Shown piece by piece: positions 8,741-54,360 of a stretch of 64,000 bases of DNA. A program made the translations under genes and the position numbers. The stretch spans positions 1 to 64,000 of the forward strand of contig JAYFMW010000028.1 of NCBI GenBank assembly GCA_042408215.1, read 5' to 3'. Position 1 is the first letter of the stretch; each line of letters begins with the position of its first letter. Below the pieces are notes generated by a model. That model had not been told where the DNA came from. It did not search any database and worked only from the letters and a program-made list of their open reading frames with translations. This DNA is from Microcoleus sp. (GTDB taxonomy: Bacteria > Cyanobacteriota > Cyanobacteriia > Cyanobacteriales > Microcoleaceae).

Positions 8741-9391
8741 ATGGAATTATTTACGATCGGTCACTCAAATCTGAGTATTGAAGCGTTTGTTTTGCTGCTG
8801 CAACAACATGGAATTACCGCAGTGGCAGATGTGCGATCGCACCCTTTCAGCCGCTATTTACCCCATTTCAATCAATCGGAAATTAAAGCCTCTCTGTCTG
8901 GTGCCGGCATTCAATACGTTTTTTTAGGTAAAGAATTGGGCGCAAGACCGGAAGATTTAAGCTGTTACGATGTTAGTGGTAAAGCTTTATACCAACGCAT
9001 CGCCGCCACTCCTCTATTCTCCGAAGGAATTCAGCGCTTACTTAAAGGTGCAGCCAATTATAAAATCAGTCTAATGTGTGCGGAAAAAGACCCGATTACT
9101 TGTCATCGGACTATTTTAGTTTGCCACAAACTGAAAGATTTTAACTTGCAGATTAATCACATTCTGTCCGATGGCAATTTAGAATCGCACCAGGATTTAG
9201 AAGCCAGACTTTTAAGCAAGTTTAATACTTGTGCTGAGCGTAGTCGAAGTAAAGGCAAAAAAAATGATGAACCAATTCAATTAAGTTTGTTTGAATTAGA
9301 GCCTCGTGTGAAAACTGAAATAGTTGATTTAGAATCAGCTTATTATCGTCACGGATTGGAAATCGCTTATGTCACAAAAGAAAGCAATTAA
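8741..9391 (+). CDS. DUF488 family protein
   Basis: FTIGHSN, DVRS.P.S, LGARP, MCAEKDP.TCHR. Confidence 0.85.
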   Translation: MELFTIGHSNLSIEAFVLLLQQHGITAVADVRSHPFSRYLPHFNQSEIKASLSGAGIQYVFLGKELGARPEDLSCYDVSGKALYQRIAATPLFSEGIQRLLKGAANYKISLMCAEKDPITCHRTILVCHKLKDFNLQINHILSDGNLESHQDLEARLLSKFNTCAERSRSKGKKNDEPIQLSLFELEPRVKTEIVDLESAYYRHGLEIAYVTKESN

Positions 9392-9821
9392 TTTATTTAC
9401 AATTGGTTTTACTCAAAAAAGTGCCGAGGAGTTTTTTGGGACTTTGATGCAAGCGGGAGTCCGCAGGGTGATAGATACGCGACTAAATAATGTATCACAG
9501 TTGGCTGGTTTTGCTAAGCGGAAAGATTTAGAATATTTTCTGCGAACAATTGGTAATATTGAGTATGTTCATGTGCTGGATTTAGCGCCGACTCAAGATA
9601 TTTTGGATGATTATAAAAAGAAAAAGGGAGATTGGGATGTTTATGAACAGCAGTTTTTGGGCTTAATGCGCGATCGACAAATTGAACACAAGGTTTCATC
9701 AGATCTGATAGACTGTTCGTGTCTGCTTTGTAGCGAACCCAAACCTCATAATTGTCACCGCCGCTTAGTCGCTGAATATCTCAGCGATAAGTGGAAAAAT
9801 GTCAAGATTAATCATCTTTGA
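9369..9821 (+). CDS. DUF488 family protein (short type)
   Basis: FTIGFT, DTRL, LAPT, LCSE..P..CHRR; overlaps upstream gene. Confidence 0.85.
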   Translation: MSQKKAINLFTIGFTQKSAEEFFGTLMQAGVRRVIDTRLNNVSQLAGFAKRKDLEYFLRTIGNIEYVHVLDLAPTQDILDDYKKKKGDWDVYEQQFLGLMRDRQIEHKVSSDLIDCSCLLCSEPKPHNCHRRLVAEYLSDKWKNVKINHL

Positions 9822-9928
9822 TATTTAGTAAGGTGCGTCAGATCGGAGATTTTCAATCATCGCCCTAGAACTTCGTCTGACGCACCCTACCACTAATCTA
9901 CAATCTAAAATCTAAAATCTAAAATCCC

Positions 9929-10615
9929 ATGACTCGGATAATTTGTCTCGCTAATTCGTGGAAACGCGGCGACAGATGCATCGCCGGAATTAATGAACTT
10001 CAAGGTAAGTGGGTTCGCCCAGTTTCAGACTTACCAGATGGTCAGATTCCGCAAGAAATGCGGCAGATAAATAGACTTGAACCCGCATTATTAGATGTTC
10101 TAGACATTCCTCTGGCTAAGACGGGGCCGGACTTTGGCTTTGAGTGTGAAAATATCTCTGTTTTACCGGGAAAATGGCGGCAAGTTGGGAAGGTTCCGCC
10201 AGCATATTTGTTGAAATATTGCAACAGTCAGGAATATATTTTGCACAACGATTTGCGATATGTTACAGTGGAATATATGCAGTCTTTGCCAATGTGCGAT
10301 CGCCTGACTTTGCAATTAGTCAAAGCAGTAAAATTTACGGTAAAAAAGCTAAGTCAAAGATTTGAAGGTGCTCATAAATGGGAAGGATCTATTGTCACGC
10401 AGCATGACCAAAGATTGACCGCAACAATTACCGATCCGGTGTTTATTAGAAAGTTAGAATTGGGCTATCGACCGCAAAAAGCTTGTTTGGTAACGGTGAG
10501 TTTGAGTATGCCTTGGCGGCCCGATGATTGGGAGGGAGATGACCCTTGTTGGAAGTTGATTGCGGGTGTGGTAGAGTTGCCGGAAGATCTTGTTGGCGAT
10601 CGAGTTTTGTTTTGA
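9929..10615 (+). CDS. dual OB-fold (dOB) domain protein
   Basis: CLANSWK.G.RCIAG..WVRPV N-terminus, ITDP and VSL...WKLIAGV C-terminus; follows the DUF488 pair. Confidence 0.7.
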   Translation: MTRIICLANSWKRGDRCIAGINELQGKWVRPVSDLPDGQIPQEMRQINRLEPALLDVLDIPLAKTGPDFGFECENISVLPGKWRQVGKVPPAYLLKYCNSQEYILHNDLRYVTVEYMQSLPMCDRLTLQLVKAVKFTVKKLSQRFEGAHKWEGSIVTQHDQRLTATITDPVFIRKLELGYRPQKACLVTVSLSMPWRPDDWEGDDPCWKLIAGVVELPEDLVGDRVLF

Positions 10616-11216: not shown

Positions 11217-11816
11217 TTAAAACAAATCAGGGCAATAACTCCCTGGATTCGAGATCAAATTGTTTAATATTCCGAACTGTTGAAACACCGGAGAAGACAA
11301 GCTGACGGGTAATGAAACTGGCCCGCACGGAGCCTTATTGTCTTTGAAATACACAATTCCCAAATAAGATTTAACGCCTAATTGTTTAGACAAAGCTACT
11401 TGAATAGCCAGCGGATTGTTATTATAACTGGCAATTTTTATGCCATATAAATAATTGTTTGTTTCTGCTACAGAAAAGCCCAAAGATTTCAAAAGGCCAG
11501 CCGCAGAACTCGGTGTTTCTGGCTGTGGAAATGAGAGAGTGCCGAAAGAGTTTGTAAATTGAGATTCTTCTGAATATTCCGCAGTTTGGTGTTTATTCAG
11601 ATAACTAATATATTGTGTAGCTTCACTTTCTTTAGCTTGGTTGATTAATCTGAGGAAAGTAGGCAAAGCAATAGCCGATAAAATCCCAACGATCAATATC
11701 ACAACTAATAATTCAATCAAAGTGAAGCCGTGGGAGGAATTATGACATTTTTGTCGTCGTAAATAGCGTTTATGGTGACAGATGTATAACAAAAAGTTTT
11801 GAGTAAATACAGACAT
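11217..11816 (-). CDS. type IV pilin-like protein
   Basis: G|FTLIELLVVILIVGILSAIALP prepilin motif, QAKESEA, C-terminal Cys pair. Confidence 0.85.
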   Translation of the reverse strand: MSVFTQNFLLYICHHKRYLRRQKCHNSSHGFTLIELLVVILIVGILSAIALPTFLRLINQAKESEATQYISYLNKHQTAEYSEESQFTNSFGTLSFPQPETPSSAAGLLKSLGFSVAETNNYLYGIKIASYNNNPLAIQVALSKQLGVKSYLGIVYFKDNKAPCGPVSLPVSLSSPVFQQFGILNNLISNPGSYCPDLF

Positions 11817-11907
11817 AAATACCCCCTAAAACTGAACTAGAAGTAAAATAAGACCAAGGTCAAAAAAACCGGGTTTCTCCGAAAAATCGTGCATCAAACC
11901 AGAGATA

Positions 11908-14872
11908 TTAAGACAGAAACCCGGTTTTTGGCCCCGCGTAGATTCCGCCATTAAGTATTCCTTGCAATTCTCGCCAAGTTTTCGGATACTCAGCTTTATT
12001 TTGACAGATAATCGGCAACCAGCTAACACCGGGAATTTCCCCATCATAATCTTTTAGACGCTTTCGGGCTTCTCTCACGGAAACATAAAAAGAATTGCCG
12101 CCAGCAAAAGCTTGGAGAAAAGCTTTCAGAAACTCCTGGGCGACTAAATCCGGCACTCGTTCCCGCATCACGATAATTTGAGGGATATCTAAATGGGCTA
12201 ATTGCTTCGCCAATCCTAAGCCATCGCAAGAGTTAAAGATTGCTATTTCCAAACCCTTTTGAATAGCTATTTTCAAGGAATCTTTTAGCTGTTCCACGGT
12301 TAACTTATCTGTTTCATTGATACAAATCACCCCCGTACTGCCATCTACTTCGCTCTGACTGTGACCCGAAAAACACAAGATATCCCAGCCTATTTTATCA
12401 GTGAGATGTTCCTCAAGTTTCCTGAGATTTGGTTTTTCCAAAAATTTTATTTCGGCTCCTTGCAAATCCTCCAAAATTTGTCTATCTGCATCGAGATTAA
12501 TTCCTGTACTGTCGCCCAAAACTGCCAAAATTCTTACTTTGTTTCTCGATGGTACTGATTTTTTGACTCTGTTAGATAGTTTGCGACTTAAAGCTACTTC
12601 TGCTTTAGTGTAGCTTTCAAAAAATTCCCATTGATGCCAGGGGAGTTTTCGCAGTAAATTATCTTCAGTTTCGATGATTACCCGCACCTCGTCATTGTGG
12701 TTTAACTTGTCGCGCAATCCATGCTGGATTGGGTGAAATTGTTCTGATTTCAGCCAATTCTTTACATCCATTTCTACTTGTTCAGCTTAGGGTTTTTAGC
12801 TCCTCTATGGAAAAGTTAGTGATTTGACCTTTGTCTACTTTTATGGCACGGTTGTTTCGCTTACGGTTAAACTCATACATTTCTTGCCACTTTTGATAGT
12901 TTTCTGAAAGTTCAGGTTTGGGTGGCAATTTGCCTTCTAATGTTATGCCTAAACGCTGGCGATCGCACAAAATATCAGCACTGTCACCTCAAACCCTTGT
13001 TTCAAGTCACCACGCTCCAATTTTAAGAAGACTACTTGTTCAGACAATGGTCTGACTATATCCTCCATTACTGACAGCAAGTATTGGCGCTGTTCTGCCA
13101 TTGTTTGCAGGGTAGGAACTTGTCTGCCGAATATTTTTAGCGTTTCTTGATAGAAAATATTGAAATCATTATAAATTTTTTCTTTGTCCGCATCAGGAGG
13201 TACGCTGACTTTGACGACAACTCCATTTCCTTTATTTTCAATACTTTGAATGTTGAGTGGTATACCTTGATTTTCTACTTGGACTTGTTGGAAAGATTCC
13301 ACGAAAGCTTTCCAGTCAACACCGTGGCTGAAGATTAAGTCAACTGTATTTATAACTTCTTCAAAAAAGGTGGTAAATTCTCCTGGTTGATAGTTCGCCT
13401 GTACCGCTGGGGCGGCGTTCGCGATCGTCCGTTCGCGGTTTCGGTTCTTCTAGCAAATAAACCCACCTACAATCAACCCATTCTAGTTCCGTAGTGCTGT
13501 CAATATTCCAGGTTCCCAAACCGCAAACACCAGTCATTTGGGCACTACTAAAATCAGTGCCGATCGCCTGAACTTGACTAAATATTGCATATTCTAAATT
13601 AGCCGTTTCCAAAGTGGCTTGACTGAGGTCTGCTGTTTGAAGTTTAGCATTTCTGAGGTCTGCACCTATCAAGTTTGCTCCTCTCAAATCCATGCCTTGA
13701 TAGCATTTTTGATGACCGTTGCCGGTGACAAGTAAATCTCGCACTGCTGGATTGATTAATATTGTCTCATCGACTCTTGCCCAGTCGAGAAAACGAGCGT
13801 GACGCCACATAGTTCGGTGGATAGTAGCAAATCTAAAATCGGTGTTTTTGAGGGTGGCGTAGCTGAAGTTAGTATGGGCTAATTGAGTATTGCGAAAACT
13901 GGTGCCGCCCATCGCACCAATGACGATCGCTAACTGGCGAATTACGCTGTATTTATCATCTTCGGCTAAAACTCTTTTAGCAATGTAAGTTCCTAATAAG
14001 ACCAAAGCTACAGCTACAATTACAGATCCAGCGATCGCCGCAATAACTACAGGCGGATCGGCAAAGTTTTTGACACAATTATTCAGGACATCATAGCATT
14101 TATTGTTTCTGTTGTCAACTACTCCAGCTTGGATTAATACGGATGCTTTTAAATATCTCAAGGAATTTCTGGCAATAATTCCGGTGGCGATCGCACTTAT
14201 AGCCACAGCTTCAAATAGAGCCAAAGCTGCAATCGTCCGCCCCAGAACAACTTCAGCCAATGTTAGGGCTAAAGGAAGAGCGACAACTGCGATCGTAGTT
14301 GCAACGACAGCCGCAGTTAAAGTCACAATTAAAAACGGAGTATCGTTAGCCTTCGTTTCGCCAGACAAGGCACTAATTAAGGCACCAGTTCTAAAAGACC
14401 TTAACCACGAAAGTATGGGATGTTTATCATTGGAGAATGCAGAGAGAAAACCAATGAGAGGTACAAAAATAGCAGCCGCAATACCTAAATAATCTAAAGC
14501 TTTTTGTATCCCTTGGCGAATCATAGTAGTCAACAGAATAGCATTGACTAATAAGATGATTGCGGTTGGTATAAAACCGATATGCTCGGTTGTTTTGGGA
14601 ATTAGAGATTTGAATGTATTATCAACAGCAATTACAGCAGCTATTCCTGATATCGCCGAGAGCAGTGCTACAATTAAGAATATTTTGATTTGGGATTTTC
14701 TGGCTAATCCGCAGCGAGCGTGATTGAAATTAGCCCCATCGAGAGTTGCATTGGTAAAGTCTGCACCTCGGATATCTGCATTAGAGAAATCTTCATTGGT
14801 GAGATTACGACCTTTGAAAGAACGACCTTGGAGATTTTTACCGCGAAAGTTTTGAAAGGTTAATGATGACAT
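11908..14872 (-). pseudogene. membrane pentapeptide-repeat/CHAT protease fusion split into 4 ORFs by 3 frameshifts
   Basis: Pentapeptide repeats and TM helices (13361-14872), linkers (12949-13302, 12782-12970), CHAT domain with FSGHS and FNSCDG (11908-12771); frames join after small indels near 13395, 12970 and 12787. Confidence 0.8.
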
Positions 14873-14890
14873 ATGGTATAAGGAGGTTCG

Positions 14891-14970
14891 GCAGCGGATT
14901 TTGTAACGGATTTAACGGATGTTTGGCAGCGGATTTTGTAACGGATTTAACGGATGTTTGGCAACGGATT
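14891..14970. repeat. 35-bp direct duplication containing seven CGGAT units
   Basis: gcagcggattttgtaacggatttaacggatgtttg x2 plus a partial copy, 20 nt upstream of the pentapeptide-CHAT start. Confidence 0.9.
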
Positions 14971-14990
14971 CCTCGTTTCCAGGCTGTTCC

Positions 14991-15191
14991 CATTGGTGAC
15001 AACTTAAGACTGGAATTCATAATAAATGTCGCTTTTAGGCGAAGTCTAGATCCCCCTAAATCCCCCTTAAGAAGGGGGACTTCGATCCATTTCCGGTTCC
15101 CCCCTTATTAAGGGGGGTTAGGGGGGATCGAGAGGCTAATTTACCCATACATTAAACTGGTACTAAATTTGACATTGAGTTGACACTAATG
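14991..15191. mobile_element. MITE-like element with 18-bp imperfect TIRs and internal CCCCCTTAA-GGGGG palindromes
   Basis: cattggtgacaacttaag ... attgagttgacactaatg; related copies at 33605-33798 and 55983-56190. Confidence 0.75.
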
Positions 15192-15239
15192 AGAAGGGTA
15201 GTACCCCTACATAGTTTTACAAATGGCTTAGACGCGCTA

Positions 15240-15380
15240 TATATCATATCCGGTTGATTCGTGTTTGTATGGGCGGGGCGGGTTTATGAAGCTGTTGGCT
15301 TGGAAGTCAAGAATACTGGTGAACCCGCCCCTACAATACATTGCATTATACAAGAAGGAATCAATCGGACTCGATCTAAC
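15240..15380. mobile_element. second miniature inverted-repeat element with internal GGGGCGGGTT..AACCCGCCC hairpin
   Basis: tatatcatatccggttgattc ... gaatcaatcggactcgatcta ends. Confidence 0.5.
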
Positions 15381-15395
15381 CCAGTTAGGTAACTG

Positions 15396-16334
15396 CTACA
15401 AACGAAAAGATTGCCTCACATTTACCTCTCCTAACACGATATTAATGCTGAACAATTCCCTTAAATCTGGAGTAAATTCAAATTTAATAAAGTTGTCAGC
15501 TTTTCTCGATTCTACCTGATAAAGTAGCTCTTCTGACTCATTAATCAGCATCAATTTCAACCCTGGAGGCAAGTAAGTTTGATTTCCCATTGGATGCACT
15601 TCTATCTCAATATTTACTTCTAAATCTGGTTCTGGCGGCAGCGTGACTAGCAGTGCTACGGAGTGTTCTGCTAATTGCATTCCCAGGTCAATTTTATGAC
15701 CGCGATCGATAGGTAATGCGTTGTTGCTTCTAAAAGAGCGAAATTGCAATTTTTGAGAATTTAATAGCTCATCGATTACTTGCCATCCCTCATCAAAAAC
15801 ATCGTCAAACCAGTTCATTAAATTAATTGGTTTTAGTTGTTTGATTCGATTCATGTAGACGAGTAAATCTTCGAGGTAATTCATTTCATCCAGAGGTACT
15901 TGTTTAGCTACTTTTCTGGTAAATCCTAACAGCGTTGCTTGTCTCAAAGATTGGTCAAACTGTACGGCTACATAACCAATTCTGTCTCCCCAAGCATCGT
16001 AGGAAATCTGACAAGCGTCTGCATCTGGTAAGACGGGACAGCATTCTATTTTTCCTATTTGTTTAACGTGTAAATCTGCCACATCCATCAGTTTCAGCAT
16101 TAATGGATTGCGACTGTCGCTAACAGGCCAATCTGTCTCAAATCCCATGCAGCGCAGGTAAGAATCTACTGCATATACTGCGAGGGTATTAAGATAAACT
16201 TGTTTGAATTTTTTCGGACTGGATTGTTTGCTGCACTGTTGGGCAATTTCGTGCGCTTCAAAGGATAGTGGCACTGTGAAAGTTATGGTTTCAATCATTT
16301 TACTCATCATTAATTTATCCGCTGCATCACTCAA
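15396..16334 (-). CDS. DUF1822 family protein
   Basis: KQVYLNTLAVYAV..YL, DRIGYVAVQF..LLGF, L..WF..GWQ, LPPGL.L, ESR..DNFI motifs. Confidence 0.85.
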   Translation of the reverse strand: MSDAADKLMMSKMIETITFTVPLSFEAHEIAQQCSKQSSPKKFKQVYLNTLAVYAVDSYLRCMGFETDWPVSDSRNPLMLKLMDVADLHVKQIGKIECCPVLPDADACQISYDAWGDRIGYVAVQFDQSLRQATLLGFTRKVAKQVPLDEMNYLEDLLVYMNRIKQLKPINLMNWFDDVFDEGWQVIDELLNSQKLQFRSFRSNNALPIDRGHKIDLGMQLAEHSVALLVTLPPEPDLEVNIEIEVHPMGNQTYLPPGLKLMLINESEELLYQVESRKADNFIKFEFTPDLRELFSINIVLGEVNVRQSFRL

Positions 16335-16337
16335 CTA

Positions 16338-16997
16338 CTACTGTAATTTATTACGAATGTAATCTGAAAATTTCCGCAGATTTCGATCGAAAAAACTTTG
16401 GAGTGTTGAAATGCTTTTGGTAGGGTGAAATCTTTGAGCTATGGTCTTCCATTTTTCATCATCTAATATAGCTAAAGCTATGACTTGCCAAGTGATATCG
16501 GGACGATTTTTGATGGTTTTATTTCGGAAAAGACGATCGGGATCTTCTGCTATCAATTCACGCAGTCTTTGGGTATCTTCCATCATTTGCATCTGGGGAT
16601 AGTTTTGTTGATAAATATCGGATTCTTCTTGTTCAAATTTTTCTAAGTCATCTATCGAGAAACATTTAATTCTTGTTTCTCTTCTATATCGATCGCACAC
16701 ATCTCTAAATCTAAAGTTAAAGAAGTGATTCACCCAAGCCATGACTGGTTTTTTTGAATCATAGGTGTCAATGTTTTGACAGATATGCTCAACTATTTTC
16801 AACCGGGCTTCGCTGTAAATATCTTCGTAAAGATGAAGAAGGCTGTCATCACCTATGTGGGGACGAGTAAGTCTGTTATGACGGTAAATTTGGTCTATCA
16901 ATTTGGTTAATGCTATCTGTCGCTCTTGGCTTCCGGCTGGGTGCTGTTGAGCTTCTAGGGCTAGCTGTTTGAGCTGCAAATCGATTTCGTCTTCCAT
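16338..16997 (-). CDS. sigma-70 family (ECF-like) sigma factor
   Basis: LKQLALEAQQHP..S.ERQ.AL, NIDTYD...VMAWVN region-2-like segment, C-terminal HTH (WKTIAQ..ISTLQSFF.R); 3 nt from DUF1822 gene. Confidence 0.75.
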   Translation of the reverse strand: MEDEIDLQLKQLALEAQQHPAGSQERQIALTKLIDQIYRHNRLTRPHIGDDSLLHLYEDIYSEARLKIVEHICQNIDTYDSKKPVMAWVNHFFNFRFRDVCDRYRRETRIKCFSIDDLEKFEQEESDIYQQNYPQMQMMEDTQRLRELIAEDPDRLFRNKTIKNRPDITWQVIALAILDDEKWKTIAQRFHPTKSISTLQSFFDRNLRKFSDYIRNKLQ

Positions 16998-17058
16998 CGG
17001 GCTCTCCTCACTCCTGTGGGTATTTTTGTGCTGTCTGTTGGAACCTCTATTTATATTT

Positions 17059-17084
17059 CGGATTTGGTGGCCAGTTTTTACGCA
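17059..17084 (-). promoter_or_regulatory. candidate alternative-sigma promoter upstream of the sigma gene
   Basis: TGCGTAAAAA-CTGGCCACCA-AATCCG on minus strand. Confidence 0.5.
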
Positions 17085-17148: not shown

Positions 17149-17179
17149 TGCGGAAAAAGTTTGGCTGGATTCCGTAAGT
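17149..17179 (+). promoter_or_regulatory. candidate alternative-sigma promoter upstream of PEP-CTERM gene
   Basis: TGCGGAAAAA-GTTTGGCTGG-ATTCCG-TAAGT. Confidence 0.55.
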
Positions 17180-17296: not shown

Positions 17297-17908
17297 ATGG
17301 CTACTGTGAAGAAATTATCAATGATTGCGATCGGAGCAACATTTTTAGCTTTAGGAACAAACAGTGCGGCAGAAGGTGCAATTATTGGAGGAAAAATTTT
17401 TTCGACAGGAGGGGAAATATCAGTGCAAGTTTTACCAGCAGAAGCAGGTTTGACCAGCAATTTGAGTCTTTACTCTCCGGGAGCGCAAAGATTCATTGCA
17501 ACTAATCGGGATGTTGGCAAAGTCGTTAATTTGGGAAGTTTTCAAGCTGGCTTAGAACTAATATTTGGGATATTTACTCAAGGCAAAAAAGCCAAGGACA
17601 GGAACACTTTTTTAATGGGAGAGGGTTCGCGAAACCCCGATGGAATCGCCCATGCTGCGGTAGCTTTTCTCAGTCCTGGGGTAGCCATTGTTGGGTTTGA
17701 AGATAAGCTGGGTGGCGGAGATTTGGACTACGATGATAATACTTTCCGCTTTACTGGGGCGATCGCGAATACTCCAGATACTGCTGAAGCTGAACCTGTT
17801 CCCGAACCGACTACTGTGTTGGGTACTTTAGCTTTTGGTGCTGTCATTTCCCGCTGGCGGATGAAGCGCAAACAGCAACAGAAAGTTTTGAATTCAACGG
17901 TTGCTTAA
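17297..17908 (+). CDS. PEP-CTERM protein with DUF4114-like domain
   Basis: Signal peptide, GFED..GGGD.DYDD..F motif, VPEPTTVLG..TM..RMKRK. Confidence 0.85.
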   Translation: MATVKKLSMIAIGATFLALGTNSAAEGAIIGGKIFSTGGEISVQVLPAEAGLTSNLSLYSPGAQRFIATNRDVGKVVNLGSFQAGLELIFGIFTQGKKAKDRNTFLMGEGSRNPDGIAHAAVAFLSPGVAIVGFEDKLGGGDLDYDDNTFRFTGAIANTPDTAEAEPVPEPTTVLGTLAFGAVISRWRMKRKQQQKVLNSTVA

Positions 17909-18168: not shown

Positions 18169-18199
18169 TGCGGAAAAAGTTCTATCGAATTTCGTAAGT
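18169..18199 (+). promoter_or_regulatory. candidate alternative-sigma promoter upstream of giant subtilase
   Basis: TGCGGAAAAA-GTTCTATCGA-ATTTCG-TAAGT, preceded by the same AAAAAAAGTT..GAG.TT as at 17131. Confidence 0.55.
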
Positions 18200-18301: not shown

Positions 18302-21300
18302 ATGGCTACCACAAATGAAGTTTCCAGCAACCTGCTCATCGATGTTTTGATAACTGACACTTTACCGGGAAGTGCAGCCAAAAATTCCATCCTCAATCCT
18401 TTAAGCAGCAGCAACAGTCAAAATATTGGCGGTAGTCCTTTGATAGCTGATACCAAAACTCAGCCGATTATTGAACCAGAAAAGCTATCCAGTGCGACTG
18501 ACACGCTTAATTCAAAAAATGCGATTGCGGAACCCAATAGCAAAAAAATAGATGATTCATTAATTGTTTCGGACACTCTAAAAGGCGGTTTAAGCGGCTC
18601 AGCCAGCACCAGTATTAGTCAGGACACTATATCTTCCAGTCCTGGTACAGATGTCAAAGATACCCTGACTGGAAGCACAAAAGATGCACAGTTAGTTGTG
18701 ATTAAAGGCGACAGTATTACAGCAACTGATTCCTTGACTAATCCTCAGAGTGTGGAGAAGATACCATCTGAGAAAAGTCCCGATACCTTAGCTGAGAAAG
18801 AAACTAAGCCAGAAATTGCGATCGCCCAAAATACCTCTGTCGCAGAATCCAAACCAACAACTACTACCTTAGCTGAAACACAAACTAAGACAGAAATTGC
18901 GATCGCCCCAAATACCTCTGTCACAGAATCCAAACCAGCAACGACTACCTTAGCTGAGAAAGAAACTAAGACAGAAATTGCGATCGCCCCAAATACCTCT
19001 GTCGCAGAATCCAAACCAGCAACCACTACCTTAGCTGAGAAAGAAACTAAGACAGAAATGGCGATCGCCCAAAATACTTCTGTTGTCTCAGAATCGAAAG
19101 CAACAACGACTCCAGATACCTTAGCCACAAAAGAAAGTAAGCCAGAAATGGCGATCGCCCAAAATACTTCTGTCGCAGAATCGAAAGAAACAACGACTCC
19201 AGATACATTAGTTGCAAAAGAAAGTAAGCCAGAAATGGCGATCGCCCAAAATACTTCTGTTGTCTCAGAACCGAAAGAAACAGCGATTTCAGAAGCTATC
19301 AAACCAGATAATTCGACAGCAGAAAAACCAGCCACTACAGTCGCCGATGTTAGCAAAGACAGCAACCCAGAAAAATCTCCAGCTAGCAGCACAGAAAACA
19401 ACAAACAATCTACAGACAATACAGAAGTTGTCGCAGTTGAAACACAAAAAGAACTCAGTCCAACCGTTCCTAAATCAGAGCCAGTAGCCGATAATTCATT
19501 TACATCCGGGAAATTTGTTGTTGACTCTACAGGTCAAGTCGGCATTGATTTCTTATTTGACGGTGGCTTGTATAAAGGTCAACTAGCTATCATCAGTCTC
19601 AAAGGAATGGAGAAGTTTTCTCCGGGTTCCGAAGAATTTCTCAAAGAAGTGGCTTCGAGAGCACTTAGTAACTCTGCAAAAGGTCATGTAGTGATTGATG
19701 ACTTGAGCGAAGGTGCAAAATTTACCGGTAATTTACCTGAAGGAAATTCTAACGATGGAAGTTACTTAGGAGTCAAGACTTTTGCGATGACTCCGGGTGA
19801 GGAATTTGGGGTGATGTTAGTACCTAATGGGACTGTACAAGAGGTGCTTAATAATCCGGCGATCGGAGGAGACAAACGTCCTTTATTTTCAATGGTGACA
19901 GCGAATCCTGCTGAGGGATTTTATCTGGGTCAAATTGCAGATGTAACGGGTAGCGGCAAGACTTTTACAATGGAGGATATGCGAGTCGATTTAGGGAGCG
20001 ATCGCGATTACAATGACTTCGTATTTCAGGTGCGGGGTGCAACTGGTCAAGCTGTGAATTTAGATAGTGTGATTAATGCTGATAAAGATTGGCGCAAAAC
20101 GGATATGGGTCAGGCTTTGATTGCTTATGCTAAACCTTACGTTGAACCGAAGTTAGAGCCTGTAAAAGAGGATGCAAAACCTGTTACTAATTCTGAGTCA
20201 AATTCAGTTTTAGATGTTCCGATTTCGGATACTTTACCGACTGCAAAAGAGGATGCAAAACCTGTCACTAATTCTGTGGAAACTAAAGATGTGGCGGTTT
20301 CTGAAACAAAAGTAACGCCGACTGATGAAGCTAAAACAGAGCCGATCGCACCTGTTTCTACTGCTACTGAATCTGTCTCGAAAACCGAGGTTGCTACTTC
20401 AGATACAACTGTAACGCCAGCGGTGAAAATTGAAGAGGACAAAAAGGCGATCGTACCTGTTTCTACTGCTACTGAATCTGTCTCGAAAACCGAGGTTGCT
20501 ACTTCAGCAGGACTTACGCATGGGGAATCAGAAACCGGGTTTTTCTCCGAAAATACTTCGTTACAGCCCACAGATGCGGTAAAAAACCCGGTTTCTTTGG
20601 TCGAAGATCATCAGCCATCTTCAGATAAGACTGTAACGCCAGCGGTGAAAATAGAAGAGGACAAAAAGGCGATCGTACCTGTTTCTACTGCTAATGAATC
20701 TGTTGCAAAAACCGAGGTTGCTACTTCAGATACAACTGTAACGCCGGCGGTGAAAATAGAAGAGGACAAAAAGGCGATCGTACCTGTTTCTACTGCTACT
20801 GAATCTGTCTCGAAAACCGAGGTTGCTACTTCAACAGAACTTACGCATGGGAGTCCAGAAACCGGGTTTTTTGACGAAAATACTTCGTTACAGCCCACAG
20901 ATTCGGTAAAAAACCCGGTTTCTTTAGTCGAAGCGGATCAGCCATCTTCAGATAAGACTGTAACGCCAGCGGTGATAATTGAAGAGGAAAAAAAGGCGAT
21001 CGTACCTGTTTTTACTCCCAATGAATCTGTCTCGAAAACGGAGGTTGCTACTTCAGATAAGACTGTAGTTTCTGAGGTGAAGATTGCAGAGGAAAAAAAG
21101 GCGATCGTACCTGTTTCTACTGCTACTGAACCTGTTGCAAAAACCGAGGTTGCTACTTCAGATACAACTGTAACGCCAGCGGTGAAAATTGAAGAGGAAA
21201 AAAAGGCGATCGTACCTGTTTCTACTGCTACTGAATCTGTTGCAAAAACCGAGGTTACTACTTCAGATAAAACTGTAACGCCAGCGGTGATAATAGAAGA

Positions 21301-24300
21301 GGAAAAAAAGGCGATCGTACCGATTTCGACTAATACTGAATCTGTCTCAAAAACCGAGATTGCTACTTCAGCAGGACTTACGCATGGGGAATCAGAAACC
21401 GGGTTTTTCTCCGAAAATACTTCGTTACAGCCCACAGATTCGCTAAAAAACCCGGTTTCTTTGGTCGAAGAGCATCAGCCATCTTCAGATACAACTGTAA
21501 CGCCGGTGGTGAAGATTGAAGAGGAAAAAAAGGCGATCGTACCGATTTCGACTAATACTGAATCTGTCTCAAAAACCGAGATTGCTACTTCAGCAGGACT
21601 TACGCATGGGAGTCCAGAAACCGGGTTTTTTGACGAAAATACTTCGTTACAGCCCACAGATTCGGTAAAAAACCCGGTTTCTTTAGTCGAAGCGGATCAG
21701 CCATCTTCAGATACAACTGTAACGCCGGTGGTGGAAACTGAAGAGGAAAAAAAGGCGATCGTACCTGTTTCTACCTCAACAAAAGATGCGCCTGCTTCAG
21801 AGAAAACTGTAACGACATTAGTTGAAACTGAAACTCAAACTCAAACTCAACCTGCACCTCAACCTGCACCTAAAAACCTTTCGACAGTTGAGATAGAAAC
21901 CAAGACTAATCAACCGCAACCTGCTGTTACTCTCAGTCCAAAAAATGATGACAAACCAGCCATTTCTACTCAAGAAGTTGCTAAAGTTTCTCAGCCGATC
22001 GCCCAGGAAAGTAAGCCAGCAATTTATCCTCAAGAACTTTCGGCTGTCAATCAGTCAATTGCCACAGATAGCAAGCCAGTAACTGCCACGCCAGAAGTCG
22101 CTAAGCCAGCAATTGCTACTAACAGCCAGCCAGCAATTTCTCTTCAAGAAGTTGCTCCTGTAACTCAACCTGTCGCACCAAATGCAATTAGCACAATAGC
22201 CACAAATAGTCAACAAAAAACCAGTACAGATCCCATAAACCCCGTACAAAATGTCGGCTCTAATCCGGCTGCAATGGCTACCTCATTCCATTTTTTAAAA
22301 GCATCTCAGCCCTTAGTCGGTATTATTGGCACAGGATTTAATGTTAATAATTTTGACATAGACTACAGTCGCATTACTCTCGGAAAAGACCGCATTGCTA
22401 ACGATGACAATCCCTTAATTAAATCCGGTGAAGGTAGCGAACAAGGTACTCACGTTTTAGGCTTAATTGCCGCCACTCAAAATAACAGCAAAGGCATCGA
22501 TGGTATTAACAACGAAGCACCGATTTGGCTGGGTCGGGCTAGCGGCAACAACAGTTGGGCAGAATCCTTAATTGAATTTGTCGATACTGCCAAAAAATCT
22601 GCTCAATCAAATGCAGTTGTTAACATCAGTTTTGAACTAACTCAAGTTGATGCTAGCGGCAAGATAGTTCCCCGCTACGAACTGACAGAAGCCGAAAACA
22701 ATGCCCTAGAATATGCTCGCAAAAATCACATAGTTGTAGTCGTTCCTGCGGGCAACAATCCCCAAGAAATATCGGCTTTAGGGAAAGCATCTCTTCAGTT
22801 TGACAATATCATCACCGTCGGTGCATCTTCCGGCGGTCAAGTCACAGACTATTCCGGCACTGGCAAGGGTTTAGATATTTTAACAGAAGGAGGAACGCTG
22901 AACAATCCCGTGCGATCGACCGTCGGCGAAAGTACCGGATTGATGGCGGGTACATCCGTAGCAGCCGCCCAAGTTACAGGCGCAATTTCTCAAGTTTGGG
23001 CAGCAAATCCCCTGCTGAATTATCAGCAAGTTATTGATATCATCAAACGCACCGCCACTGATATTGCTTTGCCCAATTGGGATGCCAAAACAGGTGCAGG
23101 ATTGCTGAATTTGGCAGCAGCAGTACCTTTAGCAAAAGCGACTGAAGCTAAACCGCTACCACCAGAAGCGACTGTTCAAGATGTTGTCAGCCAAATCAAT
23201 AACTTAGCTCCAGAACTCGATCAACTGCTAGAGCAATTTAAGGCTGAATCTGACAAAATTTCTGCCAATCCAGACAGTGCTTTAGTCGAACCCAAACCTG
23301 AAGATGAAAAACAAGCTTCCCAAGAACTTGATGCTTTAATCGCAGATCTACAAAAAGACATTGATGACTTGCAAAACGATCCGTTTGCTGATGTAGATGG
23401 CATTGCTAGCGAATATCAATTTGATGCGAAAGACCAACCTTTAATCGGTATTATCGATACTGGTTTTGCTGAAAACAATCCCGATATTGACTACAGCCGG
23501 ATTATCAAAGGTAGCGATTACAATGATAGCGACGATAATCCCTTACTTCCGACCAACGACCCCAAGGCAGAACACGGCACTAAAGTATTAGAAATTATCG
23601 GGGCAAAACAGAATAATGACATCGGCATCAATGGCGTTAATGACGATGCACCGCTGTGGGTTGGACGTGCTGTTGGTTCTGGGAAATGGGCTCAATCTTT
23701 GCGGGAATTTGTGGATGCTGTAAAAGTATCCAAACAGCCCAATGCTATTGTCAACCTCAGTTTTGATTTAATTGACAAAGATGGCAACACTCGCACTAAA
23801 TTTACAGCTGAAGAACGAGCCGCCATTGAATACGCTCGCGACAATAAAGTCTTGATTGTAGCAGCGGCAGGAAATCAAGGTGTCGAAGGTTTATCTGCTT
23901 TGGGGAAAGCTTCGCGGGACTTTCCCAATATCATCACAGTTGGTGCGGCGGATTGGAATGGCAATCTTGCTGACTATTCTAGCTACGGTGCGGGAATAGA
24001 TTTAGTTGCTTTTGGCAGTACCCCTGAGAGCCAAGCAAGTTCTAATACTACTTCCAATGAGGATTTGCTCAAAGATTTAACTCCGCTTGAACGCCAAGCT
24101 GTGGAAAAAGCGATTAAATTTAACGAAGCACCAACTGAAGATGCCAAACTGACAGAAGCTGAGGAACAACTTGTCTTAGAAGCGACTAAAAAACTAGGAA
24201 AGGCGTTAGGAGATATTAAGAATCCTGATAGCAATTGGGCGGCATCAATTCCCGAAATTGTTGGTACTTCGATTGCTGCGGCGAAGGTGACTGGTGCGGC

Positions 24301-25372
24301 TTCTCAAGTTTGGGCGGCTAATCCAAATTTGAGCTTGGCACAGGTGAAAGCTATTCTCAAAGCTACTGCGGTTGATTTGGGTACTCCCGGCTGGGATATT
24401 CAAACAGGTGCGGGTTTGTTGAATCTGGCTGATGCTGTAGCAATGGCTAAATCTCCGCCAACTGGACTTGATGTTGCAGATAGTATTTTGTCCTCAAATT
24501 CTGATGTTTGGAGTGGGGAAGGTGCTAGCGAACAAGAGGCTCGTGGCTTTTTCAAGAAATTATGGAATGGAGCGAAGAAAGTCTTTAACAAGGTGAGCGG
24601 ATTTGTTGGCAAAGTGGTAGGTTTTGTTAACAAAGTATCGAGTTTTATCGGCAAGGTTAAGGACTTTTTCTCTAAAGTTAGCGGTATTTTTTCGACGGTT
24701 AAGAAGGTATTTAGCTGGATTAGTACCAAATTCTTGGCTCTGCCTATCTTGGGGAAAGTTGGGATAGTTTTAGGAGGAATTGCTCTGGTTGGAGGTGCGA
24801 TCGCAGGTTTGGTTGCATGGTTTAAGAAGAAGCAACAGCCCCCTGCACAGCCACCTGTTCAAAATACCACTCCGCAGGAAATTATCGATCTCCAAGGAAT
24901 TTGGGGCGGCTTGCCAACTGTACTAAAAACTGCTCTGAAAAATGGGATTAATAGTCCTTATGGGCGACCGCTTTTTCAGGGAGATCCGGCTGGTATCTTG
25001 CCACTAATCCAGACTTTATCGAGCATCAATCCAGGACTGAATTCTACATCGCCACAACTTTATTCTTGGCTGTTATATGGCACGCCAGCTCAGTTTCTAC
25101 CAGTGTTACAGGGTTCTGCACCAACTCCTGCACTGCCAGCGGACGTTGCTAATGCTTGGAGTGTTCTGAATCCACAGCAGAAACAAGAACTTTTGAAGTT
25201 CCTGCAAGGTGGAATTCCGCAGCTATATCAGCCCCTGTTTAATGGCACCGATCCTGATGGTATTTTGCCACTATTAAATGGTTTAGGTGGAATATCACCC
25301 AATGCTCAAAGCACTGTTTTGACTTTCTTACCAGGGGGAATTCCCAGTCCGTACCAGCCAAATTTTCCCTAG
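18302..25372 (+). CDS. giant S8 (subtilase) protein: low-complexity repeats, DUF4114-like domain, two S8 domains, cationic amphipathic segment and TM helix
   Basis: MEDMR..SDRDYNDFVF; S8#1 IIGTG/EQGTHV/GTSVAA; S8#2 IIDTG/EHGTKV/GTSIAA; GFFKKLWNGAKKV... Confidence 0.85.
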   Translation: MATTNEVSSNLLIDVLITDTLPGSAAKNSILNPLSSSNSQNIGGSPLIADTKTQPIIEPEKLSSATDTLNSKNAIAEPNSKKIDDSLIVSDTLKGGLSGSASTSISQDTISSSPGTDVKDTLTGSTKDAQLVVIKGDSITATDSLTNPQSVEKIPSEKSPDTLAEKETKPEIAIAQNTSVAESKPTTTTLAETQTKTEIAIAPNTSVTESKPATTTLAEKETKTEIAIAPNTSVAESKPATTTLAEKETKTEMAIAQNTSVVSESKATTTPDTLATKESKPEMAIAQNTSVAESKETTTPDTLVAKESKPEMAIAQNTSVVSEPKETAISEAIKPDNSTAEKPATTVADVSKDSNPEKSPASSTENNKQSTDNTEVVAVETQKELSPTVPKSEPVADNSFTSGKFVVDSTGQVGIDFLFDGGLYKGQLAIISLKGMEKFSPGSEEFLKEVASRALSNSAKGHVVIDDLSEGAKFTGNLPEGNSNDGSYLGVKTFAMTPGEEFGVMLVPNGTVQEVLNNPAIGGDKRPLFSMVTANPAEGFYLGQIADVTGSGKTFTMEDMRVDLGSDRDYNDFVFQVRGATGQAVNLDSVINADKDWRKTDMGQALIAYAKPYVEPKLEPVKEDAKPVTNSESNSVLDVPISDTLPTAKEDAKPVTNSVETKDVAVSETKVTPTDEAKTEPIAPVSTATESVSKTEVATSDTTVTPAVKIEEDKKAIVPVSTATESVSKTEVATSAGLTHGESETGFFSENTSLQPTDAVKNPVSLVEDHQPSSDKTVTPAVKIEEDKKAIVPVSTANESVAKTEVATSDTTVTPAVKIEEDKKAIVPVSTATESVSKTEVATSTELTHGSPETGFFDENTSLQPTDSVKNPVSLVEADQPSSDKTVTPAVIIEEEKKAIVPVFTPNESVSKTEVATSDKTVVSEVKIAEEKKAIVPVSTATEPVAKTEVATSDTTVTPAVKIEEEKKAIVPVSTATESVAKTEVTTSDKTVTPAVIIEEEKKAIVPISTNTESVSKTEIATSAGLTHGESETGFFSENTSLQPTDSLKNPVSLVEEHQPSSDTTVTPVVKIEEEKKAIVPISTNTESVSKTEIATSAGLTHGSPETGFFDENTSLQPTDSVKNPVSLVEADQPSSDTTVTPVVETEEEKKAIVPVSTSTKDAPASEKTVTTLVETETQTQTQPAPQPAPKNLSTVEIETKTNQPQPAVTLSPKNDDKPAISTQEVAKVSQPIAQESKPAIYPQELSAVNQSIATDSKPVTATPEVAKPAIATNSQPAISLQEVAPVTQPVAPNAISTIATNSQQKTSTDPINPVQNVGSNPAAMATSFHFLKASQPLVGIIGTGFNVNNFDIDYSRITLGKDRIANDDNPLIKSGEGSEQGTHVLGLIAATQNNSKGIDGINNEAPIWLGRASGNNSWAESLIEFVDTAKKSAQSNAVVNISFELTQVDASGKIVPRYELTEAENNALEYARKNHIVVVVPAGNNPQEISALGKASLQFDNIITVGASSGGQVTDYSGTGKGLDILTEGGTLNNPVRSTVGESTGLMAGTSVAAAQVTGAISQVWAANPLLNYQQVIDIIKRTATDIALPNWDAKTGAGLLNLAAAVPLAKATEAKPLPPEATVQDVVSQINNLAPELDQLLEQFKAESDKISANPDSALVEPKPEDEKQASQELDALIADLQKDIDDLQNDPFADVDGIASEYQFDAKDQPLIGIIDTGFAENNPDIDYSRIIKGSDYNDSDDNPLLPTNDPKAEHGTKVLEIIGAKQNNDIGINGVNDDAPLWVGRAVGSGKWAQSLREFVDAVKVSKQPNAIVNLSFDLIDKDGNTRTKFTAEERAAIEYARDNKVLIVAAAGNQGVEGLSALGKASRDFPNIITVGAADWNGNLADYSSYGAGIDLVAFGSTPESQASSNTTSNEDLLKDLTPLERQAVEKAIKFNEAPTEDAKLTEAEEQLVLEATKKLGKALGDIKNPDSNWAASIPEIVGTSIAAAKVTGAASQVWAANPNLSLAQVKAILKATAVDLGTPGWDIQTGAGLLNLADAVAMAKSPPTGLDVADSILSSNSDVWSGEGASEQEARGFFKKLWNGAKKVFNKVSGFVGKVVGFVNKVSSFIGKVKDFFSKVSGIFSTVKKVFSWISTKFLALPILGKVGIVLGGIALVGGAIAGLVAWFKKKQQPPAQPPVQNTTPQEIIDLQGIWGGLPTVLKTALKNGINSPYGRPLFQGDPAGILPLIQTLSSINPGLNSTSPQLYSWLLYGTPAQFLPVLQGSAPTPALPADVANAWSVLNPQQKQELLKFLQGGIPQLYQPLFNGTDPDGILPLLNGLGGISPNAQSTVLTFLPGGIPSPYQPNFP

Positions 25373-25845
25373 GGCTGGCTGATTTCCAAAATCTAATTGT
25401 TACCCAACAATCGCAGATTCAAGGCACTCAGTCAGCCCTGCAAACCTACCAAGATCAAATCAACGAAGCTAATACTTTGGTTAATCAACTCGAACAGCAG
25501 CGACAGGAGGCTCAAAATGCTGCTAATTACTGGAACAGCCAGATTTATACTTGGGGCATTGTCGGCTGGCAAAGAGGTCGTTCAGGACGCCAAAATCCTA
25601 TCTACGGCACGATTTACAATCCGCAGGCTGTAGCTTATCGAAATGAGGCACAAGCGGCTGCTAATATGGCGGCTCAATACCGAGATATAGCTGCACAAAA
25701 AGCCCAAGAGTTAACTGCTGCTTTGCAGCCACAAATCACAGCGCTGCAACAGCAAGTATCGGGAGAGCAGCAACAATTGCAATCGCTTGTACAACAGCAA
25801 CAAACATTGCAAAATCAGCCGCAGCCCGCAATTGCTGCACCGTGA
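25363..25845 (+). CDS. frameshifted Gln-rich coiled-coil C-terminal continuation of the giant S8 protein
   Basis: The -1 frame is open from 25363 (FSLGLADFQNLIVTQQSQ...) through ORF 25477-25845. Confidence 0.6.
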   Translation, partial: FSLGLADFQNLIVTQQSQIQGTQSALQTYQDQINEANTLVNQLEQQRQEAQNAANYWNSQIYTWGIVGWQRGRSGRQNPIYGTIYNPQAVAYRNEAQAAANMAAQYRDIAAQKAQELTAALQPQITALQQQVSGEQQQLQSLVQQQQTLQNQPQPAIAAP

Positions 25846-40445: not shown

Positions 40446-41240
40446 CTATCTTGAATTGTGTACATGAGTTACCTCCTCAGTTTTTTGGAAAATTGTAAAA
40501 AATTCATTGTCAGGCTTTTCAATATCCTTGGAATCAACAAGCTTTAAATCAATATATTTTGACGCATACAGCTCCTTGCAGATATTCGTAAAAGAGTGAA
40601 AGTCAAAAATATTACAATGTACATCAACATATCCCTTCCTAGAGACTTCTGAACGAGCTAATTCTAAAGCTTCAAATGCAGTCGAAAAACGTTTTTGATT
40701 GAGGAGTTCTTGAAAATCTCCTTTCCACACATCAAGGGCTGAAATAGGTCTGTAAAAGTAAAGATGCTCAAATACCTGATAAATTGTCGGTATGTTCAGG
40801 TCTTCATCATAATTCCGAATGATTTGCGATAAAGATGTCAGGTTTCTTATTTTGTCAAAAGTATATTCTTTATGGGGAACAGAAAGAAATAAAAAGCCAT
40901 CTTTTTTGAGAATTGAAGATACATTATTGAACCAACCAATGATATTCGGAATATGTTCTATTACATGATTGGCAATCACTAAATCAAATTCTTGATTAAT
41001 AGGCTTGTGAAAGTTTTTGTCTTTGACAACAAAATCAACTTCAACTAGATTTTCTGCCTTCTGCGGATTGTTATATTGGTGTTTGAGATACAGTTCAGCT
41101 TTAGAAAACCAATCCAGGTAAAATATATTAGCTTCTGCTTTATGAAAGGTAGGATTATCAAGAGCACCAATTTCGAGAATTTTAGCCGATGATAGCTCGA
41201 TAATTTTTTTTACAAACAATTGACGTGATGACTTTGGCAT
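40446..41240 (-). CDS. class I SAM-dependent methyltransferase
   Basis: ILEIGAL, DLVIANHVIEHIP, LKKDG.LFLSVP. Confidence 0.8.
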   Translation of the reverse strand: MPKSSRQLFVKKIIELSSAKILEIGALDNPTFHKAEANIFYLDWFSKAELYLKHQYNNPQKAENLVEVDFVVKDKNFHKPINQEFDLVIANHVIEHIPNIIGWFNNVSSILKKDGFLFLSVPHKEYTFDKIRNLTSLSQIIRNYDEDLNIPTIYQVFEHLYFYRPISALDVWKGDFQELLNQKRFSTAFEALELARSEVSRKGYVDVHCNIFDFHSFTNICKELYASKYIDLKLVDSKDIEKPDNEFFTIFQKTEEVTHVHNSR

Positions 41241-41304
41241 AACTATTTTTCCTGCTTCGGGTTGTCTCAAGTATTGGAAATTATTTAAAGTAGCAAAAAA
41301 ACTA

Positions 41305-44679: not shown

Positions 44680-44718
44680 ATACAAACCTCTATTCGATCT
44701 TGTTTTTCACTGAAATTA

Positions 44719-46533: not shown

Positions 46534-46787
46534 ACTCCAATAGGAATACTGATATCGCTTCCTATCCTGTTCCCCAGATTCCGAGTCAACCTTTGTTAAT
46601 GTAACTGATTGAGGAGGTAAAAGTTCATGATTTTCCTGCGATAGATGCGGATAAATCTGAATGCTTATTTACTGGAAATGCAATAATTTTTGATTGGTTG
46701 CTCATCGCCTGTACCTGTTGTAATTTTACACCCGTAAATCCGCTTAATTTATGATTCCTGGTGTTGGCTAAGCTATCCGGAAAATTT

Positions 46788-52484: not shown

Positions 52485-52671
52485 ACTTAAACTACTGATT
52501 TGACAAGGTAAGTTCTCAAAAAAAATTGAGAGTGGAAGAGGCGTTATGGAATAGGTAATGGCTGCAATTCGGCTGCTTTTAATTAGAATATCCGTCCTGG
52601 ATCTATTACCAATTAGCAATTAGCAATTACTATTTAATTAATGGTATAGCCACCGGAAATTGAGTAGAAAT

Positions 52672-53796: not shown

Positions 53797-54360
53797 GGTA
53801 AATCCTTTGTTGAGGATAGTGATGTATGTGCAGTATCTGCACCCTAACGAGATGACAAACCAGCTAAAGAAAGCAATCAATCAAGCTTTTAAGCAAATTG
53901 ACCTAGAAATTGCAAATGATTGACAGGCCGATCGATCGTCAGTCAAGTTGCCGCCTGTCAGTTCGCCCGCCCGATCGACCCAACTACTAAGACAGCATTC
54001 AGTGGAAAGCTTTGGGGTTGGGTAGCATTTGTTACTTTGGACCCTAGCCAGTCATCTTGGATTGGGGAAGATCGATCGGGAGTATCTATATCTCTGGTCA
54101 GATTTACTAGCAAAAGTCCTGATGTCCGGAATAGCTTTGCGTGATATTACTGACTAACTGAAGGGTGACATAAAAGGAACAAAAGTACAGGGAATTGCGT
54201 CGCAGCGCAGCCCGCCCTTGTGGGTTTCTAAACAGCGTAAAATTCTCACCTTTAATTAGGGCGACCTACTTCACAAATCCATCTTTTGTGCAGATAGAAA
54301 TTCTCACTCAAATCACTCAAATAATGAGAAACTAATATTAGCGTTACCCTTTTTTGAGCG

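Follow-up and report, generated by a model that had tools for sequence, protein, structure and literature searches.

The stretch of DNA analysed here, called the window below, comprises positions 1–64000 of contig C28 of the Microcoleus sp. genome G000 (7.36 Mb, 30 contigs). Most of the named homologs, at identities of about 80–91%, belong to Microcoleus, and the source is probably a cyanobacterium of the mat-forming Oscillatoriales. Its minus strand carries four co-oriented units: an open reading frame (ORF) of 219 amino acids (aa), a DUF1822 gene, a gene for a pentapeptide/transmembrane (TM)/CHAT protein and a type IV pilin gene (Table 1). A first-pass annotation had read them as a sigma-70-like gene with DUF1822 3 nucleotides (nt) downstream, a membrane CHAT protease and a pilin, and had suggested that DUF1822 is an anti-sigma factor or substrate in a CRISPR-independent switch for surface or competition genes. 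The genes are real, and that observation was confirmed in part and its interpretation supported in part: the system is conserved and known computationally, and its protease is broken in this assembly. The 3-nt spacing holds with a TTG start of DUF1822, the start common to most orthologs being ATG 16310. The CHAT domain keeps both catalytic motifs, FSGHS (His) and FNSCDG (Cys), and the pilin carries N_methyl and Pilin_GH domains.

We assessed gene linkage in 80 DUF1822 loci, the best of 579 that were confirmed. A sigma of the same family lies directly upstream of DUF1822 in 67/71 loci with enough flank; EACC2-CHAT (EACC2 being assigned by homology, using a profile that we built) is the next gene in 54/70 and present anywhere in the flank in 62/70; and all three genes occur together in 44/62. 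The linkage of sigma, DUF1822 and CHAT, whose conservation had been suggested as a check, exceeds chance. The pilin is found in 13/13 pentapeptide-type loci for which 5 kb of flank was available and in 0/43 of the other loci. Within G000, all six EACC2-CHAT genes follow a protein with the C-half of DUF1822, all four DUF1822 N-halves follow a sigma of this family, and three C-half proteins without an N-half bear TRADD-like_N instead. This sorting of domains fits an N-domain for the sigma and a C-domain for the protease. DUF1822 matches occur in 211/301 genomes of the phylum. About 100 small genomes (1.6–2.5 Mb) of another class of the phylum have one weak match apiece, so the family reaches beyond the photosynthetic class.

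Predicted sigma:DUF1822 complex

The 219-aa ORF has no Pfam match, and its NCBIfam sigma matches reach only E ~0.003, under the cut-off; Foldseek and PDB profile searches returned nothing at E <= 0.001. Its AF2 model, built from an 11-row alignment (predicted local distance difference test, pLDDT, 80.3), aligns with the sigma2 domains of extracytoplasmic function (ECF) sigma factors at Z-scores of 10.5–8.8, led by SigC (10.5, with a root-mean-square deviation (rmsd) of 2.0 and 86 aligned residues), SigW (9.8) and SigK (9.3). The C-terminal region matches region-4 domains (SigH, Z 6.7; SigR, Z 5.7), and the top 29 rows of the structural alignment (VIA-align) are nearly all sigma factors, with sigma2 and sigma4 both matched. 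The ortholog at locus L022 matches TIGR02937 at E 1e-4, long-form relatives of 390–400 aa pass this family's cut-off (5/5 tested), and orthologs carry sigma-70/sigma24 annotation. Because the model aligns with sigma2 and region-4 domains, and has the sigma2 and sigma4 domains only, a feature of ECF (group 4) factors, we take the ORF as a divergent ECF-type sigma factor, predicted to bind core RNA polymerase and drive transcription.

Complex prediction for sigma and DUF1822, another of the suggested checks, gave scores of 0.84, 0.85 and 0.84, against 0.00 for the best of three controls; the runs share at least 95% of contacts, with a partner pLDDT of at least 84. The mark for this score, attained by 116/157 solved pairs and 2/215 mismatched pairs, is only roughly valid here, the alignments having been supplied by us. 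The interface comprises sigma residues 21–38, 58–73, 109–122, 135–145 and 174–215 and mainly residues 9–154 of DUF1822. In the model, the DUF1822 N-domain covers the sigma2 helices, including residues 58–73, which we take to be the core-binding region, and the helix-turn-helix of sigma4. A search of the PDB by sequence found no similar complex. Anti-sigma-like binding is supported since the predicted N-domain buries sigma2 and sigma4, as anti-sigma factors do, and on the strength of the model DUF1822 very probably binds the sigma through this domain. The anti-sigma role that had been suggested for DUF1822 is therefore backed by both the predicted complex and the gene linkage.

DUF1822 itself (PF08852, E 1e-64; 304 aa from the likely start at the ATG) is modelled as two domains (pLDDT 88.6, predicted template-modelling score 0.80). 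Residues 11–160 best match the structure of I-Ssp6803I (Z 8.5, rmsd 3.1, 112 aligned), followed by other nucleases of the PD-(D/E)xK type (Hje, Z 8.4; D212, 7.4; Hjc, 7.2); a Z near 8 is about the level that common folds reach, and several members of the nuclease families stand in the top rows. Residues 200–304 match immunoglobulin (Ig)-like sandwiches at Z up to 7.3. Foldseek and PDB sequence and profile searches gave nothing at E <= 0.001. A published label of DUF1822 as a TPR protein (PMC8195603) is ruled out by this alpha/beta plus beta-sandwich model.

Between the two domains lies a linker, residues 181–200, of low model confidence. Among 39 sequences non-redundant at 70%, in which related ones are not independent, this linker has [FY]R in 26 (compared with 5% of random windows of the same length) and hydrophobic-[RK] in 37 (compared with 40%).

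Sensor protease and putative promoter motif

The first-pass annotation described one multi-TM pentapeptide protein ending in CHAT and missed that the gene is broken here. It is spread over four segments: the ORF with the sensor part, a frame with 12949–13359, a short frame at about 12985–12790 and the CHAT ORF. Compared with five intact orthologs, 78–94% identical to it at the DNA level, the window gene contains additional bases near 13397 (+1), 12985 (+2) and 12790–12798 (+1). Contigs from related strains, among the runs listed, are without the extra bases at 13393 in 4/4 and at 12978 and 12789 in 3/4. Seven same-genus loci have an ORF of 944–1025 aa behind DUF1822. Among 15 loci with a pentapeptide-TM sensor and a C-terminal CHAT, 14 have complete ORFs of 956–1115 aa from stop to stop, the other ends at a contig end, and all 15 have both His and Cys. 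Six TM segments are predicted from hydropathy for 11 of 14 orthologs, and the CHAT domain is therefore probably cytoplasmic. In the window, the EACC2-CHAT profile matches 12785–12988 (E 3e-17) and 11911–12786 (E 8e-152); it also matches the N-terminal EACC2-CHAT of CHASE2/STAND/WD40 proteins. No TPR was found in the window protease.

We considered two explanations for the breaks, both of which fit any mechanism: local assembly errors, the strain's protease being intact, or a recent true loss. The ratio of nonsynonymous to synonymous substitution (dN/dS) between the window CHAT and intact orthologs is 0.45–0.46, which equals values between intact copies (0.39–0.46) and gives no sign of long decay; His and Cys are kept, and the three breaks are all insertions within about 600 nt. 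Further breaks in G000 point the same way. Two paralogous sigma/DUF1822/CHAT modules on contig C5, with CHAT-NACHT and TPR-CHAT proteases, have several frame breaks each (500500–506100, L190; 167900–174400, L191), with four other EACC2-CHAT genes reading intact, and the exoprotein gene beside the locus is also broken, with an apparent continuation in another frame from about 25360 to 25845 that encodes a Gln-rich coiled coil. On the other side, the background of breaks is low (7/73 control orthologs flagged over 27,413 aa, two of them judged true, and 0/10 in another set), so that three in one gene lie far above it, and the breaks are outside long homopolymers. None of the sequencing runs located was near enough to decide the matter (best share 0.56). 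Assembly error has a little under an even chance. The window copy is a poor test object, its protease gene being broken.

Two further observations concern the sensor. The gap that separates the sensor gene from DUF1822 is extended to about 520 nt by a tandem duplication of 35 nt and a palindromic repeat that recurs throughout the genome (14882–14951 and 15045–15133). In addition, loci L032 and L033 have the same pentapeptide-TM-linker scaffold without EACC2-CHAT (about 630 aa) and away from sigma/DUF1822, and the protease module is accordingly one tail among several at the C-terminus of this scaffold.

A two-block motif, TGCG(T/G)AAAAA-N13-(C/T)CG(T/A)AA, occurs in the window in three exact copies and in four with at most one mismatch (chance mean for the latter, 0.13). 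The exact copies precede the sigma, a divergent PEP-CTERM gene and a giant DUF4114-subtilase gene. The motif precedes the sigma in 13/14 confirmed pentapeptide-type loci with upstream DNA. Across 15 loci it has 49 matches (6 when the DNA is reversed), of which 44 are found ahead of sigma, PEP-CTERM or exoprotein genes (two assigned by position only). A matrix scan of G000 ranks the three window sites first, a ranking not independent of training on the relatives' sites. The next site is unlinked (C10:167094; L185:4093, minus strand), scores 29.7 bits against a reversed-genome maximum of 21.9, and precedes a 109-aa ORF of no family and then a subtilase and VWD protein of at least 952 aa; the fifth match falls inside a coding region. 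In a second clade, the left block is kept and the right block is GGAAGATA-like (13/52 upstream regions, from the listed sites alone, as the reversed control for the k-mer listing mirrors its input and is thus no control). A constant left block with a changed right block is as expected for the -35 and -10 elements of ECF promoters, and the motif is probably, though a shade less surely than for the binding of DUF1822, read by this sigma.

A general PEP-CTERM motif was ruled out, as only 1/13 PEP-CTERM-like ORFs in G000 has it; an upstream motif at PEP-CTERM genes was seen only in Proteobacteria in the available text of Haft 2006 (PMC1569441). None of 13 loci has the motif before the pilin, so no separate pilin promoter was found, and scans for the sigma-70 consensus and for terminators remained at chance level. 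Exoproteins of relatives reach 4114–4497 aa with variable C-termini: that of L181 ends in an Amidase_2 domain and that of L180 is followed by an RHS/YD protein. This variety suggests competition or surface functions and, together with the motif before the PEP-CTERM and subtilase exoprotein genes, supports the surface or competition output that had been proposed. The variable ends resemble polymorphic competition proteins, and the window exoprotein includes, near its end, an extended amphipathic region rich in Lys and Phe and also a hydrophobic helix.

Table 1. Features of the sigma/DUF1822/CHAT locus and its predicted targets in the window.
Feature	Position	Strand	Basis
Divergent ECF-type sigma factor (sigma2 + sigma4), 219 aa	16338..16997	-	structural model, ortholog annotation
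DUF1822: N-terminal PD-(D/E)xK-like domain, W-motif, flexible linker, C-terminal Ig-like domain	15396..16334	-	PF08852, model
Low-pLDDT DUF1822 linker (residues 181-200, ...KLQFRSFRSNN...), candidate CHAT cleavage region, Arg191/Arg194	15711..15770	-	model, conservation, inference
Sensor-protease gene, 5' part: pentapeptide repeats, about six TM segments, pentapeptide repeats; frame lost near 13397	13361..14872	-	
Sensor-protease gene, middle part (linker domain, EACC2), in two other frames; breaks near 12985 and 12790-12798	12785..13397	-	
CHAT (caspase-like) domain ORF; His codon 12363-12361, Cys codon 12228-12226	11908..12771	-	PF12770, E 4.6e-12
Type IV pilin-like gene (N_methyl + Pilin_GH), constant fourth gene of the pentapeptide variant	11217..11816	-	
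Bipartite promoter-like motif GCGTAAAAA-N13-CCGAAA, 58 nt before the sigma start	17056..17083	-	predicted autoregulation
Motif copy before the divergent PEP-CTERM gene	17150..17177	+	
PEP-CTERM/DUF4114 surface protein, predicted target	17298..17908	+	
Motif copy before the giant exoprotein gene	18170..18197	+	
Giant DUF4114 + subtilase exoprotein, 2356 aa, predicted target	18302..25372	+	

Elsewhere in the window, two DUF488 genes and a Dual-OB (DuOB) gene on the plus strand (8741–10615) resemble a nucleic-acid defence or repair module, which is also found in L037. Large TPR-glycosyltransferase genes, methyltransferases and an RTX-repeat protein on the minus strand (40446–53880) form a probable surface-protein glycosylation locus.

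Proposed switch and its alternatives

We propose, with somewhat more confidence than doubt, that the anti-sigma factor DUF1822 is cut by the membrane CHAT protease, which would turn on the sigma and with it a small regulon of surface and competition genes, independently of CRISPR. Without a signal, the nuclease-fold N-domain of DUF1822 is predicted to clamp sigma2 and sigma4 and to keep the sigma inactive, and the Ig-like C-domain may dock on EACC2-CHAT. A signal would activate the membrane sensor and align the His/Cys dyad of CHAT, which would then cut DUF1822 after a linker Arg. The N-fragment may be degraded or loosened, and the released sigma would transcribe its own operon along with the PEP-CTERM and giant subtilase exoprotein genes from the putative promoter motif. 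As a guess, the trigger is surface contact or the state of the envelope, perhaps through the co-encoded pilin. The cleavage step, argued by analogy, is probable, if less so than the binding or the promoter assignment. If the frameshifts are real, the switch would be stuck off here unless a paralogous EACC2-CHAT acts in trans. As to independence from CRISPR, which had also been proposed, no cas family was found among the 39 larger window ORFs scanned, and cas1 of G000 occurs only on contigs C6 and C26.

Several points weigh against this proposal. First, only 4 of the 30 top Pfam DUF1822 loci (a subfamily with sigmas of 390–400 aa) have CHAT within 1.5 kb, and an adjoining protease is thus missing from many sigma/DUF1822 pairs. 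The loci are also kin, so that our linkage counts overstate independence, and some genomes occur in both locus sets. Second, an intact protease frame is found in relatives and is lacking in this genome, with its three breaks. Third, the sigma falls below every curated family cut-off tried (Pfam, NCBIfam), and the motif could belong to another regulator. Finally, a linker cut would leave the N-domain on the sigma, and a second step would be needed.

This last point, that the sigma-binding domain stays whole, also favours the strongest alternative, in which DUF1822 is an anti-sigma factor and is not a substrate: CHAT would process itself or another protein, or simply dock, and the sigma would be freed by partner switching. 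The many pairs without a nearby CHAT fit such a scheme, activation through an autopeptidase has been proposed for these caspases (Kaur, Iyer, Burroughs, Aravind, eLife 2021; PMC8195603), and DdvA of Myxococcus is proposed to self-cleave (PMC11506125). Against it stand the conserved aromatic-Arg in the disordered linker, the pairing of the C-half with EACC2-CHAT in every case in G000, and the precedents of HetF/PatU3 and Csx29/Csx30, each of which cuts a sigma partner. We consider a non-substrate DUF1822 unlikely, while giving it more weight than the remaining two alternatives.

The nuclease-like fold raises a second alternative, a conflict or defence module in which DUF1822 is a latent PD-(D/E)xK-fold nuclease, masked by the sigma-like protein and freed by the caspase, with transcription secondary. 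The catalytic motif of PD-(D/E)xK nucleases is D...(D/E)xK. The best structural matches of the N-domain are nucleases, the sigma is predicted to lie over the nuclease-like face, and N41, D79 and E89 are conserved in 37, 33 and 32 of the 39 sequences. The would-be catalytic set, however, is D79...E89-x-R91 in most homologs rather than the canonical residues: the Lys position is Arg in 30/39 and Cys91 in the window copy, and E-x-R fails to align in the seven sequences of the long-sigma subfamily. Since a Z near 8 can reflect a common arrangement, and a dedicated promoter motif with surface-gene targets fits a regulator, we hold a latent nuclease to be improbable. More improbable still is that the upstream ORF is no working sigma, that the motif is instead bound by its product, or by some other regulator, in repression or activation, and that the pair is merely sigma/anti-sigma-like; the weak family matches and empty Foldseek and PDB profile searches speak for this, and the sigma-dominated structural rows, the TIGR02937 matches of the L022 ortholog and long-form relatives, and the ECF-like spacing of the two blocks speak against it.

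If the proposed protease switch is true, a major class of caspases in cyanobacteria (G000 alone has six EACC2-caspase modules) would act in signalling rather than in cell death, and a subset of the cyanobacterial genes for PEP-CTERM proteins and giant exoproteins in mat-forming Oscillatoriales would have a first candidate regulator. The analysis also makes a catalogued neighbourhood testable, as it supplies target genes, a promoter sequence, an anti-sigma factor whose interface is predicted and an Arg that is a candidate for the scissile residue. A broader picture is conceivable, in which DUF1822 is a large family of cytoplasmic anti-sigma factors whose nuclease fold has been retired and whose conserved linker Arg is the cleavage site of cognate EACC2-caspases, with many parallel circuits in cyanobacteria, HetF-PatU3-HetZ as a remote homolog, and the pentapeptide/pilin variant as a surface-sensing switch for polymorphic giant exoproteins in mat competition; taken jointly, these claims are doubtful.

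Relation to known systems

The neighbourhood and the sensor architecture were already known in 2021, which the first-pass annotation had overlooked. A computational catalogue (Kaur et al, 2021) describes EACC2-caspases with a neighbouring ECF sigma and DUF1822 and proposes that caspase activation leads to sigma-driven transcription, and its supplement 3 lists the pentapeptide-TM-pentapeptide sensor architecture twice. As described there, the system has the same three components as the window, and a variable N-terminal sensor fused to a constant module is present here too. It differs in calling DUF1822 TPR, where our model has a nuclease-like and an Ig-like fold, and in that its two sensor rows pair with TRADD-N proteins rather than with sigma, full DUF1822 and pilin. 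In its main text, the terms "anti-sigma", "pilin", "PEP-CTERM" and "subtil" are absent. The present analysis adds the anti-sigma complex model, the DUF1822 fold, the cleavage-site candidate, the motif-based regulon and the pilin association. No experimental study of these modules was found in the literature, most subscription papers and bioRxiv supplements lying outside the search.

Two other bacterial systems combine a CHAT domain with an ECF sigma. In DdvA-DdvS of Myxococcus (PMC11506125), CHAT is tied to sigma release and the anti-sigma binds sigma2 and sigma4; there, CHAT is periplasmic and fused to a TM anti-sigma, whereas here CHAT is predicted to be cytoplasmic and the anti-sigma to be separate and soluble. 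The type III-E CRISPR system Csx29-Csx30-CASP-sigma likewise has a CHAT protease, a two-domain anti-sigma, an ECF sigma and binding motifs in its own locus. The N-domain of Csx30 binds the sigma and its C-domain is needed for protease recognition (PMC10028731), the same division of labour, and the same release puzzle, as in our DUF1822 model. Type III-E differs in having Cas7-11, CRISPR RNA, TPR-CHAT and activation by target RNA, none of which is found in the window with its membrane sensor; family scans gave no sign of homology to Csx30.

The third system is HetF-PatU3-HetZ of Anabaena PCC 7120. The site at which HetF cleaves PatU3 follows Arg117 (TNYR|SPET; PMC9457339), and PatU3 inhibits the ECF sigma HetZ (PMC13342950). 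Like the window, it combines a membrane CHAT protease with a sigma-inhibiting partner in a cyanobacterium and without CRISPR, and the sigma and inhibitor genes adjoin; hetF, unlike the protease gene here, lies outside the operon, and cleavage after an Arg of the inhibitor is known there, where DUF1822 offers only linker conservation. Orthology does not follow: the window CHAT scores 17.7 bits against the HetF model, whose cut-off is 1200, and the hetZ-patU of G000 itself is located on a different contig (C6), so that the window sigma is not the HetZ ortholog. PatU and DUF1822 have reciprocal language-model (Atlas) scores of 0.83 and 0.84, under the 0.9 mark and thus a lead only. Their homology drew no support from hhalign with full and domain alignments (probability 0.5%, scores within the shuffled range), and iterated hidden Markov model searches and a deeper C-domain profile were non-significant. 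A DNA pattern for the published PatU3 cleavage-site peptide was found in 0/201 genomes; patU3 was located instead beside the HetZ family match. In one Sphaerospermopsis genome (L126:2148–6933), a sigma-DUF1822 pair directly follows hetZ-patU downstream, a single case that may be chance. By analogy, we regard HetF-PatU3-HetZ, which the first-pass annotation had missed, as a closer tested precedent for the proposed switch than type III-E CRISPR.

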